Below are positions 5,441 through 63,644 of a stretch of DNA of 64,000 nucleotides, one piece after another; position 1 is the stretch's first letter, and each line of letters begins with the position of its first letter. Source of the stretch: Parcubacteria bacterium C7867-006 (GTDB lineage Bacteria; Patescibacteriota; Minisyncoccia; Phycocordibacterales; DATDWN01); assembly GCA_001189155.1 (NCBI GenBank), contig LFCP01000001.1, positions 147,779 through 211,778 of the forward strand, written 5' to 3'. A program made the translations under genes and the position numbers. The notes under the pieces are model-generated. The model ran no database searches. It was not told the DNA's origin and saw only the letters and a list, made by a program, of their open reading frames with translations.

Positions 5441-5989
5441 ATGAAAGAAAATTTTGACGCTAATAATTCTGAAACTGTTTATTCAAAAGAATCTGTAGAG
5501 AAGAAAGAAAGAGCTCCAGAGTTTAACTTTGAAAGTGGGGTAGAAGAATCTATTAATAGAATAGTTAGTATCCTGGAAAAACAACCTAAAGTTGTAGTTG
5601 CTTTTTCTGGCTCATCTTCAAATGTTGGAAAAACAACATTATCAAAACATATATCTCAAGGGTTGTATGATAGAGGTATACAGTCTAGATCTTATATGGG
5701 TGTAGAAGAGGTTCACGATAGAGGGCCTGAGCCGGGAGATTCTGTTTTTATATTTCAACAGATACATTTAGGAGTAGTTAACAGCAGTATAGTTGATAAA
5801 ATAAAAGATATTTATAATGAGGATGTTAGGGATGCTTTTAAAGAGAAAGGCCTTGATATTTCTGGTATAGATTTTTGGGTGGGTATTTACAGGCCAGACA
5901 AACCATTTGCAAGTGATGTTATTGCTGATTCTAATTCTGAACCTATAGCAGATATTATTATTAGGAATGACATGGCTGAAGATAAATAG
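5441..5989 (+). CDS. P-loop NTPase/kinase-like protein
   Basis: Walker A motif AFSGSSSNVGKTTLSK; 182 aa. Confidence 0.5.
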   Translation: MKENFDANNSETVYSKESVEKKERAPEFNFESGVEESINRIVSILEKQPKVVVAFSGSSSNVGKTTLSKHISQGLYDRGIQSRSYMGVEEVHDRGPEPGDSVFIFQQIHLGVVNSSIVDKIKDIYNEDVRDAFKEKGLDISGIDFWVGIYRPDKPFASDVIADSNSEPIADIIIRNDMAEDK

Positions 5990-5998
5990 ATTTGATTT

Positions 5999-6493
5999 AT
6001 GGTAAGTAGAGTTTTGAATAATAAAAACCTGGAAGTAAAAAAATCCAGAAATGGGGTTGGTGTTTTTGCTAAAAATGATTTTAAAACTGGAGAGAAGGTG
6101 CTTCGGGTAACTGGTAAATTTATTACTTGTGATATTGATGAAGATATTAATGATGAAATCAGATCAAATGCATATCGTTTTGATGAGGACTTGTATATTA
6201 GCCCAAAAGGAAAGTTAGCAGATTTTTTAAATCATTCTTGTAACCCAAACGCTAAGGTTGTAAAAAAAGATAATAAACTGTACATATTTTCTATTAAACC
6301 AATATCAAAAGGTCAAGAAATCGTTTTTGATTATTCTACAGTTATTGCCTCAGATGATGAGTGGGATATGGATTGTAATTGCGGTGAAAATATTTGTAGG
6401 AAAAATATAAAAAGATTTGGTTTTTTACCAACAAAAATTAAAAATAAATATATTACAGAAAATATTGTTCCTAGTTATATATTAGAAATCTAA
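5999..6493 (+). CDS. SET-domain protein (putative protein-lysine methyltransferase)
   Basis: NHSCNPN motif, a tyrosine-containing C-terminal motif (FDYST) and a cysteine cluster CNCGENICRKN (post-SET). Confidence 0.75.
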   Translation: MVSRVLNNKNLEVKKSRNGVGVFAKNDFKTGEKVLRVTGKFITCDIDEDINDEIRSNAYRFDEDLYISPKGKLADFLNHSCNPNAKVVKKDNKLYIFSIKPISKGQEIVFDYSTVIASDDEWDMDCNCGENICRKNIKRFGFLPTKIKNKYITENIVPSYILEI

Positions 6494-6519
6494 AAAAACT
6501 ACCTTGTGGTAGTTTTTTT
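6493..6519. terminator. Bidirectional intrinsic terminator
   Basis: aaaaaactacc-ttgt-ggtagttttttt. Confidence 0.6.
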
Positions 6520-6527
6520 AGATAATT

Positions 6528-6956
6528 TTAAGCTGGGAGGTCTAGTTGAATTCTAACTAGACTTACATACCAACCAAAAGAAAGGGGACCAAAATAACCA
6601 GTTCCAGATGATAATCCAGCTGGCAGTAGCACTTTGGATGCATTAGCATTTTGCCACCTTGTTACAGCCGATGCTGTTAAGGGGCCAAAGTATACACTTT
6701 CATTTCCAGGTGATCCAAATCCTGTGCTAGATACTGTGTATCCAGCCCAATTCAAGTATCTTTGTAGACACTGGACATCAAGCCCAGTATCTCCAACCTT
6801 TAAGTTTCTAGTAATCTCACAGAGCGGTATTGTCGTGTCTGCAGAAGATATTTTTGGTAGTACTACGATAGAGGTAATTACAAACATACCAATAATCATA
6901 GTGATAACCAAAGATCTTATGGAATAAAGTGATTTTAGCCTTAAATATGTTGTCAT
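6528..6956 (-). CDS. Secreted peptidoglycan-binding-domain protein
   Basis: Signal/TM at the N-terminus plus a PG_binding_1-like repeat (GDTGLDVQCLQRYLNWAGY...FGPLTASAVTRWQ). Confidence 0.6.
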   Translation of the reverse strand: MTTYLRLKSLYSIRSLVITMIIGMFVITSIVVLPKISSADTTIPLCEITRNLKVGDTGLDVQCLQRYLNWAGYTVSSTGFGSPGNESVYFGPLTASAVTRWQNANASKVLLPAGLSSGTGYFGPLSFGWYVSLVRIQLDLPA

Positions 6957-12299: not shown

Positions 12300-12350
12300 A
12301 TGTTTAGTTTAACAAATACTTTAGCTTTTCCATATAACAGAGTTAACAGA

Positions 12351-12380
12351 CTTGACGTTCTGGCTACAAAAGGTGTAGTA
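12351..12380 (+). promoter_or_regulatory. Sigma70-like promoter of GC-rich cassette A
   Basis: TTGACG (12351-56), an 18-nt spacer, then TAGTAT (12375-80). Confidence 0.5.
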
Positions 12381-12397
12381 TTTTACCCGGAGGCACG

Positions 12398-12617
12398 CAT
12401 GAGTACTGTGAAGAATATCTCTCACACACCAAACAAACACCAGGCTACCGCACAGCCCATTCGCCGAATCGTTTGTCCAGTCTGTCACATCAGCCAGCCG
12501 GACATTCGCCAGACGAAGTGTCAGAGCTGTGGTCGGTTGCTTCCGGCTCGGCCTGGCGTAGTGACTGCACCTGTTCCGTCCAAGCGGTGGTTCGGGGGGA
12601 TCGCTCCCTCCAGGTAG
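12398..12617 (+). CDS. Small zinc-ribbon protein (GC-rich cassette A)
   Basis: GGAGG (12388-92) lies 5 nt before the ATG. Product is MSTVKNISHTPNKHQATAQPIRRIVCPVCHISQPDIRQTKCQSCGRLLPARPG..., with a CPxC...CxxC zinc-ribbon motif. GC-rich codons sit inside an AT-rich genome. Confidence 0.55.
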
Positions 12618-12651
12618 ATATCCGCAAGACAGAATCCCACCTCGTGCAATA

Positions 12652-12728
12652 CCGCCATGGATCCCAGCCCATGGCAAAGCCCTCGTCGCTCGTCGTCGCT
12701 TGTCGTCGTCGTCCCCGTAGGGCTTTTT
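12652..12728 (+). terminator. Hairpins downstream of the cassette A gene
   Basis: gccatgg-atcccagc-ccatggc hairpin, then agccct...(CGT-rich loop)...agggct followed by ttttt. Confidence 0.4.
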
Positions 12729-12766
12729 CTATATTTGAAATTTTCTTTGTGCTATATTGATTCAGA

Positions 12767-41023: not shown

Positions 41024-41416
41024 TTAGAAATGAACGATGTTGATGTGGTTGTCGGTGAGAGTTGGGATTGCGACGTCGAGGATGGCCGGCATTGCCAGTT
41101 TGTCCATCTCGGACATCTTGATGAGTATATCTGACACACGGATCTCTCCGTTGGTTGGCAGTCCGCAGAGTGTTGAAAATTCTTTCGCTCCCCAGACTTC
41201 GAATCCAACGTAGTTTTTCTTTCCGTCTTCTTCGTGGTTCCGCCGAAGAAGAGACAGATGAGTTCCTTTGATGAACTCCTCTGTTGTAGAGCAGTCCTCA
41301 ACAATGACCGAAATCATGTCGAGTTCGTCGCTGTATGTAATACAGGGACGAAACGCCAGTCTCCCCGTGAGCCAACCCGAGAATATTTCATCTAAGGTTT
41401 GATTTTCCACATTCAC
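41024..41416 (-). CDS. Hypothetical 128-130 aa protein (GC-rich cassette C)
   Basis: Minus-strand promoter TTGAGT (complement of 41452-57), 17-nt spacer, TACAAT (complement of 41429-34); AGAGG SD; GTG start (41416, or 41410 with better SD spacing). GC-rich relative to the flanks; product MNVENQTLDEIFSGWLTGRLAFRPCITYSDELDMISVIVEDCSTTEEF... has no recognisable family. Confidence 0.5.
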   Translation of the reverse strand: MNVENQTLDEIFSGWLTGRLAFRPCITYSDELDMISVIVEDCSTTEEFIKGTHLSLLRRNHEEDGKKNYVGFEVWGAKEFSTLCGLPTNGEIRVSDILIKMSEMDKLAMPAILDVAIPTLTDNHINIVHF

Positions 41417-43372: not shown

Positions 43373-43400
43373 TTGTTTATTAAGTGTTTTATTGTATAAA
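43373..43400 (+). promoter_or_regulatory. Promoter of GC-rich cassette D
   Basis: TTGTTT, a 16-nt spacer, then TATAAA with an adjacent TG. Confidence 0.4.
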
Positions 43401-43418
43401 TGTTGTCGGAGGCTGCGC

Positions 43419-43637
43419 ATGATGGATGATGATATTCCACCGGTCACCCTTGATGAGGCTTTCGAGATCTGTCAGCGAGCGTTCGCTGGTGGTCACGTTG
43501 ACCATGAAAGGGTCCTAGACATCAAGGCCTACTGTTACGTTGATGACAACTTCGCAATCGCTCTGTATGAGAGGTTGCATCTGTCTGGGCATTTCGTTAT
43601 GTCAGCTCTGGACCGTGCCGTCTATGAAAGTCTATAG
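43419..43637 (+). CDS. Small acidic protein (GC-rich cassette D, 72 aa)
   Basis: GGAGG (43408-12) lies 6 nt before the ATG. Product is MMDDDIPPVTLDEAFEICQRAFAGGHVDHERVLDIKAYCYVDDNFAIALYERLHLSGHFVMSALDRAVYESL. Confidence 0.5.
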   Translation: MMDDDIPPVTLDEAFEICQRAFAGGHVDHERVLDIKAYCYVDDNFAIALYERLHLSGHFVMSALDRAVYESL

Positions 43638-46318: not shown

Positions 46319-47296
46319 ATGGACCTAGAAAAATTTTTACAAAACCCAAAGACTGCATACCTAGCTCAGAGCTATAAGGCTCTTTTAGAGCAAGAGTCTT
46401 CTACAGAGCAAATGATAGAGAGTGATCCTTCACTTGCTGAGTTAGCGTACTCAGAACTTGAGGGTCTGAAAGAGCAAAAAGAAGCTCTTATGAAACAAAT
46501 GCAAGAGATTGTTTTTGAGGAGGAAAAAGAGGAAGAGTTTCCTAATGAGATTATTCTTGAAGTTAGAGCTGGGGCAGGAGGTGAAGAAGCATCTATTTTT
46601 GCCGAAGATTTGGCTCATATGTATACACGATACGCAGAAAACCAAGGTTGGTCTGTTTCTCCAATAGACGAGTCTAGGAGTGCGGTGGGGGGTTACAAAG
46701 AAGCCTCTTTTGAGATACGAGGACGTGATGTTTATAAACAACTTCGTTTTGAAACAGGTGTTCACAGAGTTCAGAGAATCCCGGCTACAGAGAAAATGGG
46801 GCGTGTTCACACTTCAACAGCAACGGTTGCCGTGCTTCCTGTACGAAAGAAAACTAGTATTGAAATAAAACCAAGTGATTTGGAAATTGAGACATCTCGT
46901 TCTGGTGGCGCTGGAGGACAGAATGTTAACAAAGTGGAAACGGCTGTAAGAATTATACATAAACCAACAGGAATAGATGTTCGCTCTACATCACAGCGAA
47001 GTCAGCTCAAAAATCGTGAAGCGGCAATGAGTATTTTGATAGCAAAACTGGAAAGAATGAAAGAAGAAGAGGAAGCTGCAAAGTATTCAGCAGATAGAAA
47101 GTCACAAGTTGGAACCGCTGATAGATCAGAGAAAATAAGAACATATAATATCCTACAAGACCGTATAACAGACCACCGTATTAAGCAGTCTTGGCACAAT
47201 ATTGAGAAGATTCTAGCTGGGGGACTAGAGCCAATAGTGGAGGCAATGGAGGGCTTTGATGGAACTAGTGTAAATAGTGGAGACTCTGATGAGTAA
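46319..47296 (+). CDS. prfA: Peptide chain release factor 1
   Basis: PAT tripeptide ([17 protein letters not shown]) and GGQ motif ([15 protein letters not shown]). Confidence 0.85.
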
Positions 47297-47340
47297 TTAA
47301 AAAACCTCTAGAAATAGAGTTTTTTTACTATATAAAATAC

Positions 47341-47369
47341 TTGACAAATATATTATATAGTAGTATAAT
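47341..47369 (+). promoter_or_regulatory. Consensus-perfect sigma70 promoter of GC-rich cassette E
   Basis: TTGACA (47341-46), a 17-nt spacer, then TATAAT (47364-69). Confidence 0.65.
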
Positions 47370-47406
47370 TATTAAAGATCTAACAATTTCCTTGAAAGGG
47401 GAAACA

Positions 47407-47796
47407 ATGCCCTATACGAAGACCTTCGCCGTTGTTACCAGCCTTCTCGCTTTTCAGATTGCCATGATGTGGTTCGCAGTTGGTTCCACTTCTGGCGGTA
47501 ACGAGTTCAAGACTGTGACAACCCACAGCTACGACGTTCCGTTCGAAAGGTACTGCGGTTATCTGGAAGAAGTTGCCCATGGAGTCATCCAGTTCGACGG
47601 CAAGGACCCAGTGGACATCGCGTATCTTTTCTTCCGCTCATCGGTTGGGAAGCCTAGCATCCCGCGTATCATCTACGGGGACACAGAGAGACTCAGTAAG
47701 ATTGAGTCGGGTCGTCATTACGACATCGGTGTCCGTCAGTACGGTGGTGGACTAAACTTCCCACGCCGTCTTGATGTAGTCGAGTCGTGCAAGTAG
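47407..47796 (+). CDS. Secreted/membrane-anchored hypothetical protein (GC-rich cassette E, 129 aa)
   Basis: AAGGGG SD lies 5 nt before the ATG. N-terminal signal/TM helix (TKTFAVVTSLLAFQIAMMWFAVGS), GC-rich codons. Confidence 0.55.
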   Translation: MPYTKTFAVVTSLLAFQIAMMWFAVGSTSGGNEFKTVTTHSYDVPFERYCGYLEEVAHGVIQFDGKDPVDIAYLFFRSSVGKPSIPRIIYGDTERLSKIESGRHYDIGVRQYGGGLNFPRRLDVVESCK

Positions 47797-47811
47797 TAGA
47801 TCTGAGCACAA

Positions 47812-47860
47812 GTCGGTGGGTTGATCCCACCGACAGGACCACACATTTGTGTGGTTTTTT
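47812..47860 (+). terminator. Tandem hairpin terminator of cassette E
   Basis: gtcggtggg-ttgat-cccaccgac, then ccacac-attt-gtgtgg followed by tttttt. Confidence 0.7.
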
Positions 47861-47935
47861 CAAATTCAAATATGTCAAAAAACCTAAGCTCTGACTATTG
47901 CACAACATTTATGTTTCTGCTACTATATCCACCAC

Positions 47936-48667
47936 ATGGAAAAAACAAGTAATTCATCATCAAATAGCGGAAACAGCGTTGTAGACGCTCTATTTTCTGC
48001 CGGTGCTCATTTCGGCTTTATAAAGTCTAGACGACACCCATCTACAAAACCTTTTATATACGGAGTAAAAAATAAAATTGAGATATTTGACCTTGAGAAG
48101 ACAAAGGATTCTTTGGATAAAGCAGTGGCTTTTATTGAGAGTATCGCTTCAAAAAATGGTTCAGTTCTATTTGTTAGCGGTAAAAACGAAGCAAAGGGTG
48201 CTATTACAGCAGTAGCTGAGTCTATAAATATGCCTTATGTTGCCGGAAGATTTATTGGAGGAACTTTGACTAACTTTCCAGAAATACGAAAAAGAGTAGA
48301 GAAGCTAGAGTCTCTTGTATCACAGAAAGAAAAAGGAGAACTAGTAAAATACACTAAAAAAGAGAGACTTTTGATTGACCGAGAGATAGATAAATTGCGA
48401 GAGTTTTTCTTTGGTCTTTCTGTTATGAAGAAACTTCCTGATGCTGTATTTATTATTGATGCTAAAAGGGAATCTATCGCTGTAAAAGAGGCAAAATATA
48501 TGGGAATCCCAGTTGTTGCTTTGTGTGGAACAGACAACAATCTAAACGAAGTAGAGTTTCCTATCCCTGGAAATGATGCTTCAAAAGCAAGTATCACATT
48601 TTTCCTAGAGAAAATTGCAGAAGCTTACAAGGCTGGCCAGTTGAAGAAACCTACAGCTACTGTATAA
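47936..48667 (+). CDS. rpsB: Ribosomal protein S2
   Basis: ALFSAGAHFGF...IFDLEKT, typical S2. Confidence 0.85.
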   Translation: MEKTSNSSSNSGNSVVDALFSAGAHFGFIKSRRHPSTKPFIYGVKNKIEIFDLEKTKDSLDKAVAFIESIASKNGSVLFVSGKNEAKGAITAVAESINMPYVAGRFIGGTLTNFPEIRKRVEKLESLVSQKEKGELVKYTKKERLLIDREIDKLREFFFGLSVMKKLPDAVFIIDAKRESIAVKEAKYMGIPVVALCGTDNNLNEVEFPIPGNDASKASITFFLEKIAEAYKAGQLKKPTATV

Positions 48668-49902: not shown

Positions 49903-50583
49903 TTATTTTTTTACTGATGTTGTTGTACTAGTCTTCATCTTTTTTAGTTCAGGAACAACTTTCTCTATATCTTCAACACTTTTGAATCCATAGTAAACAT
50001 TATCTTTTATTATCAGAGCAGGAAGTTCACTTTTTATTTTGTTTATTGATATAAGAGTTTTAACTGCTGATAGATCAGCATTATAATCAAAAGAGTATAC
50101 TCGTAAATCTGGATATGTCTCTCTTAATTTTGTTAAAACATAACCCTCTTTTTCGCAGTCTGCACAACTGTCATCTAGTGAGTAGAAATAGATAATTGAT
50201 ATTGGTGTTTTATTACACTTCTGGCTAATCTTGTTCATCAAAAGATAGTCCTTGATTTCTAGTAGGAAGTAGTATTTTTTTAGAGTTTGAACTTCAATAT
50301 CGCTTTCTCCTCGCTCCTTCTCTGTATATGAGAGTTTATCCTCTAGTGTGCCTAGTTCTGTTGATAGGCTACCTGTACCAACATCTTTACAAGAAGATTC
50401 CTCTAGAAGAGAGAATTGAGTCTCTGATGATAGAGTATCAATAGCTATTTTGTCTTGTATGCCTCTGATTTCATCTACTCGCTTTTGGGCAAAATAATTA
50501 CTCATTAAGATAGCAGTAATAAAAATAACCGCTGTTATAGTAAATGATAGTACGTATTGTTTCCAGTTGATTGAATTGTTCAT
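49903..50583 (-). CDS. Membrane-anchored hypothetical protein (possible thioredoxin-like fold)
   Basis: N-terminal TM helix; CADCEKEG motif in the C-terminal half. Confidence 0.4.
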   Translation of the reverse strand: MNNSINWKQYVLSFTITAVIFITAILMSNYFAQKRVDEIRGIQDKIAIDTLSSETQFSLLEESSCKDVGTGSLSTELGTLEDKLSYTEKERGESDIEVQTLKKYYFLLEIKDYLLMNKISQKCNKTPISIIYFYSLDDSCADCEKEGYVLTKLRETYPDLRVYSFDYNADLSAVKTLISINKIKSELPALIIKDNVYYGFKSVEDIEKVVPELKKMKTSTTTSVKK

Positions 50584-59333: not shown

Positions 59334-59404
59334 CTAGTAGAAAATTGAATTGTATTGACGTTTACTACTTATTATGTGAGAGTTATTTATGGAGGACCAG
59401 AAAG

Positions 59405-59608
59405 ATGAAGACTCTGAATCTCAGCCAGACTGGTCGTGCTATGGTGACGACGGCGTTGATGTACTTTCTCTTCATCGCTGTCGCGATCACACTACTCCTC
59501 AGTATCGGGACGTTGGGGTGGTACCTGTTTCTGGCCGTGGTTATCGCTTTCGCGGCCTTGAGGGCCTACAGCGACTGGGACAGGAGGAACTGGAGGGGGT
59601 TTTTCTAA
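59405..59608 (+). CDS. Small two-TM membrane protein (GC-rich cassette F, 67 aa)
   Basis: GGAGG (59391-95) lies 9 nt before the ATG. Product is MKTLNLSQTGRAMVTTALMYFLFIAVAITLLLSIGTLGWYLFLAVVIAFAALRAYSDWDRRNWRGFF. An upstream TTGACG (59355-60) may be its -35. Confidence 0.5.
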   Translation: MKTLNLSQTGRAMVTTALMYFLFIAVAITLLLSIGTLGWYLFLAVVIAFAALRAYSDWDRRNWRGFF

Positions 59609-59618
59609 TCCTTCTCCA

Positions 59619-59660
59619 TAGGGCTACCCGCGATTTCGTCGCTGGTAGCCCTTCAGCTTT
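59619..59660 (+). terminator. Intrinsic terminator of cassette F
   Basis: agggctaccc-gcgatttcgtcgc-tggtagccct followed by tcagctttt. Confidence 0.6.
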
Positions 59661-59835
59661 TATTGTGATTTTTGTCAGTGGAGGAAATAGTTTTTGAGAA
59701 ACATCCGCAGACGCCGAGCTTGGCGTTGTCAACGACCCGAGTATAACGAGGGCTCTTGACGACAAGGCGTTGAGGACAGAATGAGGCTTCCGTTGGAAGA
59801 AGCCGAATGTTTTCGAAAAACTATTTCTGAAACTT

Positions 59836-63069: not shown

Positions 63070-63119
63070 ATGTGCGAGTCATTATAGCACAGCCTAAAAT
63101 CAGTGATAATTAATAAAAA

Positions 63120-63148
63120 TTGACAATGTTTTAATGGTATAACATAAT
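63120..63148 (+). promoter_or_regulatory. Sigma70-like promoter of GC-rich cassette G
   Basis: TTGACA (63120-25), a 17-nt spacer, then CATAAT (63143-48). Confidence 0.55.
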
Positions 63149-63173
63149 CAAAAAAGATCATTTGCGGGGTGCT

Positions 63174-63347
63174 ATGGGAGAAATCGTTCACGAAGTCCGT
63201 TGGCAAGTTCAGAACAACAGAAAGAATCTTCTGGAGTTCGGTGCAGTAATTGTGGTAATCCTTTTCACTGTTGCCGTGATTCTAGCTCCAGTTTTTGAGT
63301 TTGCGATAGGACTCGCAGCTTATATGGAAAGGAGGTTCTGGGGGTGA
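63174..63347 (+). CDS. Small membrane protein G1 (GC-rich cassette G)
   Basis: GGGG lies before the ATG at 63174 (the track uses a TTG at 63162). Product is MGEIVHEVRWQVQNNRKNLLEFGAVIVVILFTVAVILAPVFEFAIGLAAYMERRFWG. Confidence 0.5.
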   Translation: MGEIVHEVRWQVQNNRKNLLEFGAVIVVILFTVAVILAPVFEFAIGLAAYMERRFWG

Positions 63348-63592
63348 GCTTCATACACAAGGAAAGCCAGATCGGATCGGTTGCAATCATTGTCGGGTTG
63401 GTCTTCCTAGTCGCTGTTCTTGTCGGGTTATCCTCTAGTGCTGAGGAGCCTGTTCGAGCGACACTCTTGGGGATCTGTATCGCGTTTGCGATAACAGACC
63501 TTGCTCTGGTGCCCTATGTCTTCCAGAGTTTTCTTTTTTGGTGGCAACGCCGAAAAGAAGATAAGGAAGATGAAATGAGAAGGTACTGTTGA
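63344..63592 (+). CDS. Small two-TM membrane protein G2, translationally coupled to G1
   Basis: The GTG start overlaps the G1 TGA (GTGA), and GGAGG lies 8 nt upstream. Product is MSFIHKESQIGSVAIIVGLVFLVAVLVGLSSSAEEPVRATLLGICIAFAITDLALVPYVFQSFLFWWQRRKEDKEDEMRRYC. Confidence 0.5.
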   Translation: MSFIHKESQIGSVAIIVGLVFLVAVLVGLSSSAEEPVRATLLGICIAFAITDLALVPYVFQSFLFWWQRRKEDKEDEMRRYC

Positions 63593-63607
63593 GTTACCAA
63601 GTCGTTC

Positions 63608-63644
63608 AAGGGGTCACCGTGCTGAGCACAGTGACCCCTTTTAG
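63608..63644 (+). terminator. Strong intrinsic terminator of cassette G
   Basis: aaggggtcaccgtg-ctgag-cacagtgacccctt followed by ttagt. Confidence 0.7.

Follow-up and report, generated by a model that had tools for sequence, protein, structure and literature searches.

Patescibacteria (the candidate phyla radiation, CPR) are mostly uncultured, little is known of how they attach to their hosts and, to our knowledge, nothing has been established experimentally about their promoters. Among small mobile genes, integron cassettes are normally promoterless, end in attC and are arrayed beside intI and attI. The phage moron, a concept introduced by Juhala, Hendrix and colleagues for elements such as HK97 gene 15, is described by five traits, namely its own promoter, its own factor-independent terminator, a deviating composition, insertion between adjacent genes and residence in a phage or prophage (reviewed in PMC3594210). 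For cultured Paceibacteria, a role in host attachment has been proposed for signal-peptide proteins that are highly expressed and of unknown function (Kuroda et al. 2024, PMC10936435). Here we analyze a 520-bp GC-rich transcription unit, denoted cassette E, at positions 47341-47860 of a 64-kb stretch (positions 147,779 to 211,778 of contig LFCP01000001.1; hereafter, the window) of Parcubacteria bacterium C7867-006, a metagenome-assembled genome (MAG) of 652 kb and 36% GC from the Hanford site (Nelson & Stegen 2015, PMC4508563).

Cassette E is an autonomous, insulated transcription unit inserted in the spacer between prfA and rpsB of a 36%-GC Parcubacteria (Paceibacteria) chromosome. From sequence comparisons, we put at about 60% the probability that it is a moron-like accessory gene, transcribed very strongly, whose product is an abundant binding protein of the cell surface. 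The new evidence is the family-wide conservation of a perfect or near-perfect promoter, a terminator and GC-rich codon usage, in copies that occupy a different address even in close relatives. The unit and its immediate neighbors are laid out as follows (GC3, GC content at third codon positions; OB, oligonucleotide/oligosaccharide-binding; MFE, minimum free energy).

46319-47296, plus strand: prfA (peptide chain release factor 1), the upstream neighbor; Pfam PCRF (2.7e-52) and RF-1 (1.7e-36), IPAT and GGQ motifs, GC3 0.29
47298-47327, plus strand: terminator-like hairpin of prfA (A-run, CTCTA/TAGAG stem, T-run), the left border of the unit; inverted repeat I3, 13 nt, 92% complementary
47326-47362, no strand assigned: imperfect 18-nt palindrome centered on the -35 hexamer; inverted repeat I1, 89% complementary, arms 1 nt apart
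47341-47369, plus strand: perfect sigma70-type promoter TTGACA-N17-TATAAT (-35 hexamer 47341-47346, -10 hexamer 47364-47369)
47396-47401, plus strand: Shine-Dalgarno-like AAGGGG, followed 5 nt downstream by the ATG; unstructured leader
47407-47796, plus strand: coding sequence of 129 aa; helix at residues 4-24, linker, predicted OB-fold domain of about 90 aa, invariant Cys50 and Cys128
47797-47799, plus strand: second in-frame TAG stop, read from the sequence
47812-47834, plus strand: terminator hairpin 1, gtcggtggg/cccaccgac; inverted repeat I8, 100% complementary, present in the MFE structure
47835-47860, plus strand: terminator hairpin 2, ccacac/gtgtgg core and T-run, folding jointly with hairpin 1; hairpin within 47835-47858, TTTTTT up to 47860
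47936-48667, plus strand: rpsB (ribosomal protein S2), the downstream neighbor; Pfam Ribosomal_S2 (6.1e-68), with its own promoter-like site just upstream

The exact sequence TTGACA-N17-TATAAT occurs once on the two strands of the window, where 0.02 matches are expected and 2 of 100 shuffled sequences reached one match; a separate promoter scan of the window likewise identified 47341-47369 as the sole 12/12 site. The leader between the -10 hexamer and the ATG at 47407 spans 37 nt, and the region covering the leader and start (47376-47440) is not more structured than its shuffles (z = 0.09). Past the open reading frame (ORF), the two hairpins together have an MFE of -31.1 kcal/mol (z = -5.39), and none of 200 shuffles folds as well. 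An earlier note on this DNA had described the consensus promoter, AAGGGG-N5-ATG, a 129-aa ORF with an N-terminal hydrophobic helix, the tandem hairpin terminator with its T-run, and the placement of the whole between prfA and rpsB, all of which were recovered here, the two neighbors by Pfam. The palindrome around the -35 hexamer reads TACTATATAAAATACTTG A CAAATATATTATATAGTA and could be an operator or a chance product of AT-rich DNA.

The 129-aa product is 100% identical to the deposited protein AB201_01155, the model of which is 151 aa long, with its start codon taken from the TTG of the -35 hexamer. The initial 22 residues of this model are thus translated promoter, an artefact, and the ATG at 47407 is the real start because the alignment of homologues begins there. 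The same misannotation affects a homologue from locus L001 (P0002, 171 aa; L001 8001-8108), where the model begins with ATG GTG TAT AAT across the -10 box and the first 36 residues are an artefact.

Upstream DNA was readable for nine distinct genes of the family to which cassette E belongs. Seven of these (the window copy and those of loci L001, L007, L008, L095/L097, L098 and L099) have a 12/12 promoter, TTGACA-N17/18-TATAAT, and the other two have 11/12 promoters (L092/L003, with TTGACT, and L100, with TAGAAT). No perfect site was detected in 632 kb of other fetched loci. A set of Patescibacteria sequences totaling about 350 kb, with five family loci among them, yielded five perfect sites, four of them belonging to the family and the fifth driving a divergent GC-rich small gene that adjoins the L001 copy. 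In the alignment from promoter to start, essentially the promoter hexamers alone are invariant; several members have in common a block proximal to the ribosome-binding site, ctgttcYttgaggag, and the corresponding region of the window copy is partly alignable with the homologues. A strong hairpin terminator follows the gene in every family member. Taken together, these alignments show that the whole unit is homologous across the family and that strong purifying selection acts on the hexamers. The perfect or near-perfect promoter of all nine genes is the main argument for what would be very high, constitutive transcription, and the proposal of the earlier note that this unit is very highly expressed becomes much more plausible in light of this comparison.

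Several leaders and promoter regions of homologues have features of their own. At L001 7940-8010, divergent perfect promoters (TTGACA-N16-TATAAT on the minus strand and TTGACA-N18-TATAAT on the plus strand) face two different GC-rich small genes and sit within a 14-nt perfect inverted repeat, ATATGTCAATATAT / ATATATTGACATAT. A tRNA gene follows directly downstream, and a large serine recombinase is encoded 3.5 kb upstream. The leaders of L007 (380-410) and L008 (530-565) have in common a hairpin, GAGGC-N6-GCCTC, followed by CAACTC, which is absent in the window copy, and the long leaders (90-96 nt) of L001 and L098 have in common GAGAAAGTGCT. A regulatory leader RNA was considered and rejected, given that the leader in the window is unstructured and the hairpin of L007 and L008 is not general.

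The gene order in the window is L25, a protein with an SLT domain, L31, prfA, cassette E, rpsB and tsf, and the same order without the unit is widely kept among patescibacterial relatives. A scan of species-representative genomes for prfA yielded 80 loci, and 19 relatives hold both prfA and rpsB. The contiguity of the two genes, which the earlier note had left to be checked, is common: in 13 of the 19 relatives they are less than 200 bp apart, compared to 640 bp in the window, and without 47341-47865 the spacer would measure about 115 bp, typical of the relatives. Because the gap is short in these 13 relatives, cassette E is an insertion at a variable spot. The gap in the remaining six loci is occupied by genes unrelated to cassette E, as follows.

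L011 (the closest relative): an 84-aa orphan
L024: an IS200-like gene resembling Y1 transposases
L025: PGA_cap
L033: a 526-aa membrane protein resembling CN-hydrolases
L023: an orphan ORF
L012: an orphan ORF, with a patch of 45-52% GC (about 5940-6600) within DNA of 23-29% GC

In Patescibacteria other than the window organism, the prfA-rpsB spacer is a hot spot for unrelated insertions.

Members of the family sit at differing chromosomal loci, and none of the homologues found lies between prfA and rpsB; all of them have GC-rich codon usage foreign to their hosts. A same-locus homologue with native codon usage, which the earlier note had named as grounds for refutation, was thus not encountered. 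Locus L095 comes from a close relative of the window organism (amino acid identity of 83% for gyrB, 77% for tsf, 70% for a glycosyltransferase and 71% for orf126), and the two genomes have in common the neighborhood rpsB, tsf, orf126, glycosyltransferase, pheS and gyrB. The L095 locus ends at rpsB, so that the prfA side of that gene lies outside its extent; its family copy is located upstream of gyrB, in divergent orientation, about 7 kb from the site occupied in the window. L007 and L008, which match the 5' end of the window gyrB with 80-84% nucleotide identity, likewise have copies adjoining gyrB, and in L007 the similarity to the window stops 8 bp ahead of the -35 hexamer. The copies of L001 and L092 have entirely different neighbors. 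Identities over the domain are star-like, 45-67% among core members, and do not follow the relatedness of the hosts. Relocation accompanied by fast divergence and independent acquisition both fit these data.

Small GC-rich orphan ORFs (75, 104, 82 and 180 aa; GC 0.52-0.54) follow the family gene in L095 (6400-6810), L098 (800-1270) and L007 (830-1913), and at least one of these downstream ORFs has its own TTGACA-type promoter directly past the terminator of the family gene. These ORFs show no relationship to one another or to the other GC-rich units of the window, and a conserved downstream partner gene was rejected for this reason; together with the family gene, they look like small arrays of such units.

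Around cassette E itself, a 9-nt sequence, AAAAAACCT, flanks the unit on either side (47300-47308 and 47877-47885), and a 10-nt inverted repeat of A/T runs is found at 47319 and 47874. These repeats are possibly insertion scars; the A/T tracts of bidirectional terminators explain them equally well, and chance is compatible with both in AT-rich spacers. As the ends of a mobile element of the insertion sequence (IS) or miniature inverted-repeat (MITE) type they are unconvincing, and no transposase is present at the unit.

A unit with its own promoter, its own terminator and deviating GC content, inserted between genes that are adjacent in relatives, could also be a phage moron or a prophage remnant, that is, a lysogenic-conversion gene left behind in the chromosome (PMC3594210). 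The surroundings speak against this: both flanks consist of housekeeping genes and there are no phage genes nearby. The searches of viral data agree, with no relative of the cassette E family among the 2.9 million contigs of IMG/VR, only noise in PHROGs (best E-value 0.014, none below 0.01) and no fold match in BFVD at E ≤ 0.001 with Foldseek. We consider a phage origin of this kind very unlikely.

The earlier note had put the codon GC at about 55%, unlike that of the flanks, and this was right: the ORF has a GC content of 0.526 and a GC3 of 0.62, compared to 0.249 ± 0.033 in the host reference of 35 long window ORFs, from which it is separated by about 11 standard deviations (SD); the mean GC content of the window is 0.36. 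The other family members are similar, with GC 0.48-0.55 and GC3 0.59-0.74 in hosts of 0.29-0.49 GC. The bias is toward C-ending codons in the two-fold sets and toward ATC, AAG, GTC, ACC and GCC, whereas the host genes, those for ribosomal proteins included, show the opposite preference; TTC, GAC, ATC and AAG account for 72-83% of their respective codon sets in family genes, compared to 14-26% in host genes. The resulting usage is similar to that of highly expressed genes of E. coli.

Two readings of this composition compete, namely repeated transfer from a GC-richer pool and selection on composition. In its simplest form, the first holds that cassette E was recently transferred from a donor of about 50-55% GC (a bacterium, plasmid or phage), that its composition is unameliorated and that its promoter and codons are those of the donor. 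A GC3 about 11 SD above that of host genes is what such a transfer would leave, and the patchy, very sparse distribution of the family points the same way, as do the star-like protein tree, which is unlike host relatedness (close relatives, with gyrB 83% identical at the amino acid level, hold copies at another locus that are only 52-58% identical over the domain), and the large serine recombinases and tRNA genes within a few kb of the copies in L001 and L092. However, nine members are alike in composition across hosts of 29-49% GC, no donor lineage with native usage of this kind was found in a search of 5.8 billion proteins, and neither IMG/VR nor PHROGs yielded a match.

A further observation against recent transfer comes from cassette B (41024-41416, minus strand), a GC-rich unit that is unrelated to cassette E, lies in the same window and is syntenic in a close relative (L093 125-553). 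There, the flanking transketolase subunits are 91-95% identical at the amino acid level, and the cassette B protein, at 75%, is diverging faster. Between the window and L093, 46% of the 4-fold sites of cassette B differ, compared to 57-60% in the flanks, and yet the GC3 of cassette B stays at 0.50-0.57, with 0.22-0.32 in the flanks. This retention of GC3 despite diverged 4-fold sites favors maintenance of the composition, at least for cassette B, which, together with its flanks, was also assembled independently in identical form (L094, 100% over 1966 bp). The GC-rich composition may therefore be maintained by selection instead of marking recent transfer, and we regard recent transfer as a possible but rather doubtful explanation.

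The perfection of the promoter, the E. coli-like codon usage and the two AGATCT (BglII) sites that bracket the ORF, at 47376-47381 just past the -10 box and at 47798-47803 just past the stops, could also evoke an artefact: an assembly chimera, MAG contamination, a synthetic construct or a chance ORF in a GC-rich element that is non-coding. This explanation is exceedingly improbable. The same architecture recurs in independent NCBI, JGI, ENA and Logan assemblies from different samples, at 45-67% domain identity and with synonymous variation; both junctions of cassette E are continuous with syntenic host genes; and the window contains no excess of AGATCT (21 sites compared to 25 expected), which does not flank the homologous ORFs in the stretches read, so that its placement was judged coincidental. 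The Rfam scan found four tRNAs only in the window and no RNA family in the unit. Coding constraint is also apparent: the invariant Arg of the FERYCGY motif is encoded by five different codons across six loci (AGG, AGA, CGG, CGT, CGC and AGA), synonymous variety that implies selection on the protein.

A search with the single sequence retrieved five homologues with 44-60% identity. The profile search of 1.84 billion representative proteins gave 10 matches, 8 of them real; two repeat proteins (P0012 and P0013) were dismissed as spurious, their matches consisting of many weak repeated stretches. Extended to 5.8 billion proteins, the profile search gave 10 clusters, and a metagenome scan added one new contig only, L092. 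Judging from these searches, cassette E belongs to a very small family of orphans, which numbers about a dozen clusters in databases of billions of proteins and was found in Patescibacteria-type genomic contexts only. No family of Pfam, NCBIfam or PADLOC was matched, a defence-system component being rejected on the PADLOC result, and no sequence match was found in the PDB.

The architecture is common to all members: a hydrophobic segment at the N-terminus is joined by a short linker to a domain of about 90 aa. The six-sequence alignment contains 33 invariant columns, including FERYCGY, PSI, YDxGxRxY, FPRxL and a C-terminal Cys; two cysteines, Cys50 and Cys128 in the window copy, are invariant. 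In the window copy, the hydrophobic helix covers residues 4-24 in the AlphaFold2 (AF2) model and has a Kyte-Doolittle value of 2.0. Some N-termini resemble cleavable signals (SEA|A, AQA|A and VYA|S), one member has a partial lipobox-like motif, LMMGC, and the N-termini of the window copy and of other members resemble uncleaved anchors. Thus, of the claim in the earlier note that the protein is secreted, the export-type helix stands; a clear AXA site is lacking, and this copy may be membrane-anchored instead.

The AF2 monomer model, built on the six-sequence alignment, has a mean predicted local distance difference test score (pLDDT) of 75, rising to 84-91 in much of the core. Helix 4-24 is followed by strands, and a single short helix separates strand 3 from strand 4, an order that suggests the OB-fold pattern; the fold class alone, OB-like, can be assigned from this model. 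The isoelectric point (pI) of the domain is about 5-7.7 in 8 of 10 members, that is, neutral to acidic, and the domain is rich in aromatic residues (11-13 per 91-98-aa domain). An exported, neutral-to-acidic and aromatic-rich domain would fit sugar or polymer binding better than DNA binding.

Given that the B subunits of AB5 toxins are secreted OB-fold proteins, the product might be a toxin component or lectin of this type, or a small bacteriocin-like effector directed against the host or competitors. The gene has neither an A-subunit gene nor an immunity gene as a neighbor, the loci have no conserved partner in common, no toxin family is matched in sequence, and OB folds of the SSB type score as well or better, which places the match at the level of fold class. 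We consider such a role unlikely.

Our preferred reading, an abundant surface protein made from a strong autonomous unit, suggests the following course of expression. The housekeeping sigma factor would read the perfect -35/-10 pair, and the short unstructured leader with its Shine-Dalgarno sequence would allow efficient initiation. The N-terminal hydrophobic helix would direct Sec export of the product, which would remain tethered in some members, be cleaved in others and probably be lipid-anchored in one. Once outside the cell, about 90 aa of the product would adopt the form of an OB-type beta-barrel, which a Cys50-Cys128 disulfide would probably lock, and the two hairpins with the T-run would block read-through into rpsB-tsf. 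The most likely role is that of an abundant cell-surface protein of an episymbiotic cell that binds a ligand (a glycan or other polymer) or serves in attachment.

Several observations weigh against this reading. The window copy has no obvious cleavage site, its 20-residue hydrophobic stretch not being followed by a clear AXA. The AF2 model is moderate (pLDDT 75, six sequences) and its fold matches are generic; Foldseek against the PDB gave none at E <= 0.001 (best 0.038), and all matches had at most 17% identity. The neutral-to-acidic pI counts against nucleic-acid binding, yet without pointing to a ligand, and no partner gene is conserved beside the family copies. Rules of the E. coli type are the basis on which the strength of the promoter is assumed for this phylum. 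Finally, no mechanism of insertion was found: terminal inverted repeats, a convincing target duplication and a recombinase are all absent from the immediate neighborhood.

Elsewhere in the window, positions 49903-50583 on the minus strand encode a protein of 226 aa that combines an N-terminal membrane helix with a CADC (CxxC) motif, has no Pfam match and is syntenic in L095 with 74% identity. This protein may act as an extracytoplasmic thiol-disulfide oxidoreductase, and exported proteins with disulfide bonds, like that of cassette E, could be among those it serves.

Besides cassette E, at least five small GC-rich units (GC 0.46-0.57) occur in the window:

12340-12730, plus strand: small GC-rich unit
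41024-41416, minus strand: small GC-rich unit, cassette B
43392-43637, plus strand: small GC-rich unit
59350-59670, plus strand: small GC-rich unit
63110-63640, plus strand: small GC-rich unit

Most of these have a promoter-like site with 10-11 of the 12 consensus positions and a strong hairpin past the ORF. Their products are mutually unrelated orphans, including a 72-aa Cys-rich zinc-ribbon-like protein, a 130-aa cytoplasmic protein, a 72-aa acidic protein and small membrane proteins; none of the five has a Pfam or PHROG match. A search for DNA repeats linking these units found none, so that they do not form a sequence family. The "cassette family" of the earlier note accordingly survives as a common architecture and composition, without a common sequence and with unrelated orphan proteins.

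With these units and those beside the family copies of relatives cited alongside, it can be suggested, only tentatively, that cassette E exemplifies an undescribed class of genes in AT-rich Patescibacteria, namely small orphan genes in insulated units of strong promoter, gene and terminator. Selection, as opposed to transfer, would account for their near-consensus promoters and GC/C-ending codons; the units would move or be exchanged among spacers between housekeeping genes, and their products would be surface proteins that evolve fast and interact with the host cell.

The conservation of TTGACA and TATAAT in nine diverged copies, amid unalignable surroundings, argues on comparative grounds that Patescibacteria read the canonical sigma70 consensus and probably use it to maximal effect. 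If the unit is indeed strongly expressed, its small exported OB-fold product would be among the most abundant surface proteins of these cells and a concrete candidate for host attachment or nutrient capture. A GC-rich family in hosts of 29-49% GC, together with the syntenic cassette B, also provides a testable case for selection on base composition at the level of individual genes.

Among the described systems, integron cassettes resemble cassette E in being small single-gene units at variable positions with hairpin-forming 3' DNA. The differences are that cassette E has its own promoter, that its 3' hairpins are followed by a T-run and that the units of the window have no repeated sequence in common; the GC-rich units have no attC-like 3' element in common and form no array, intI itself not having been searched for.

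The secreted OB-fold proteins compared with the product, namely the AB5 B subunits (CtxB, PT S4/S5, SubB, PltB and ArtB), the BOF/YgiW family and DUF2500 (YhhM), appear to resemble it at the fold level only, with no sequence similarity in Pfam, NCBIfam or the PDB; unlike the AB5 subunits, cassette E is not accompanied by an A-subunit gene, its neighbors being prfA and rpsB. The cytoplasmic OB folds of SSB, PriB and LEF-3 score equally well, so that the fold class alone is common to them and the product, which differs from proteins of the SSB and PriB type in its N-terminal export helix, its pI of about 5-7.7 in most members and the lack of a Pfam SSB match. The exported proteins of cultured Paceibacteria belong to the same bacterial class and provide context rather than evidence for cassette E: they have PGBD, Ig-like, PKD or galactose-binding folds and measured expression, whereas the product of cassette E is predicted to be OB-like and its expression is inferred from the promoter.

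The closest likeness in organization is to the phage moron, with which cassette E has four of the five traits in common: its own promoter, its own factor-independent terminator, a deviating composition and insertion between adjacent genes. The two part at the fifth, residence in a phage or prophage, given that cassette E lies among prfA, rpsB, tsf, L31 and L25 and that IMG/VR, PHROGs and BFVD were negative. The conservation of a consensus promoter and an atypical composition across diverged members is likewise foreign to the moron concept. Thus, cassette E works like a moron but is not one.

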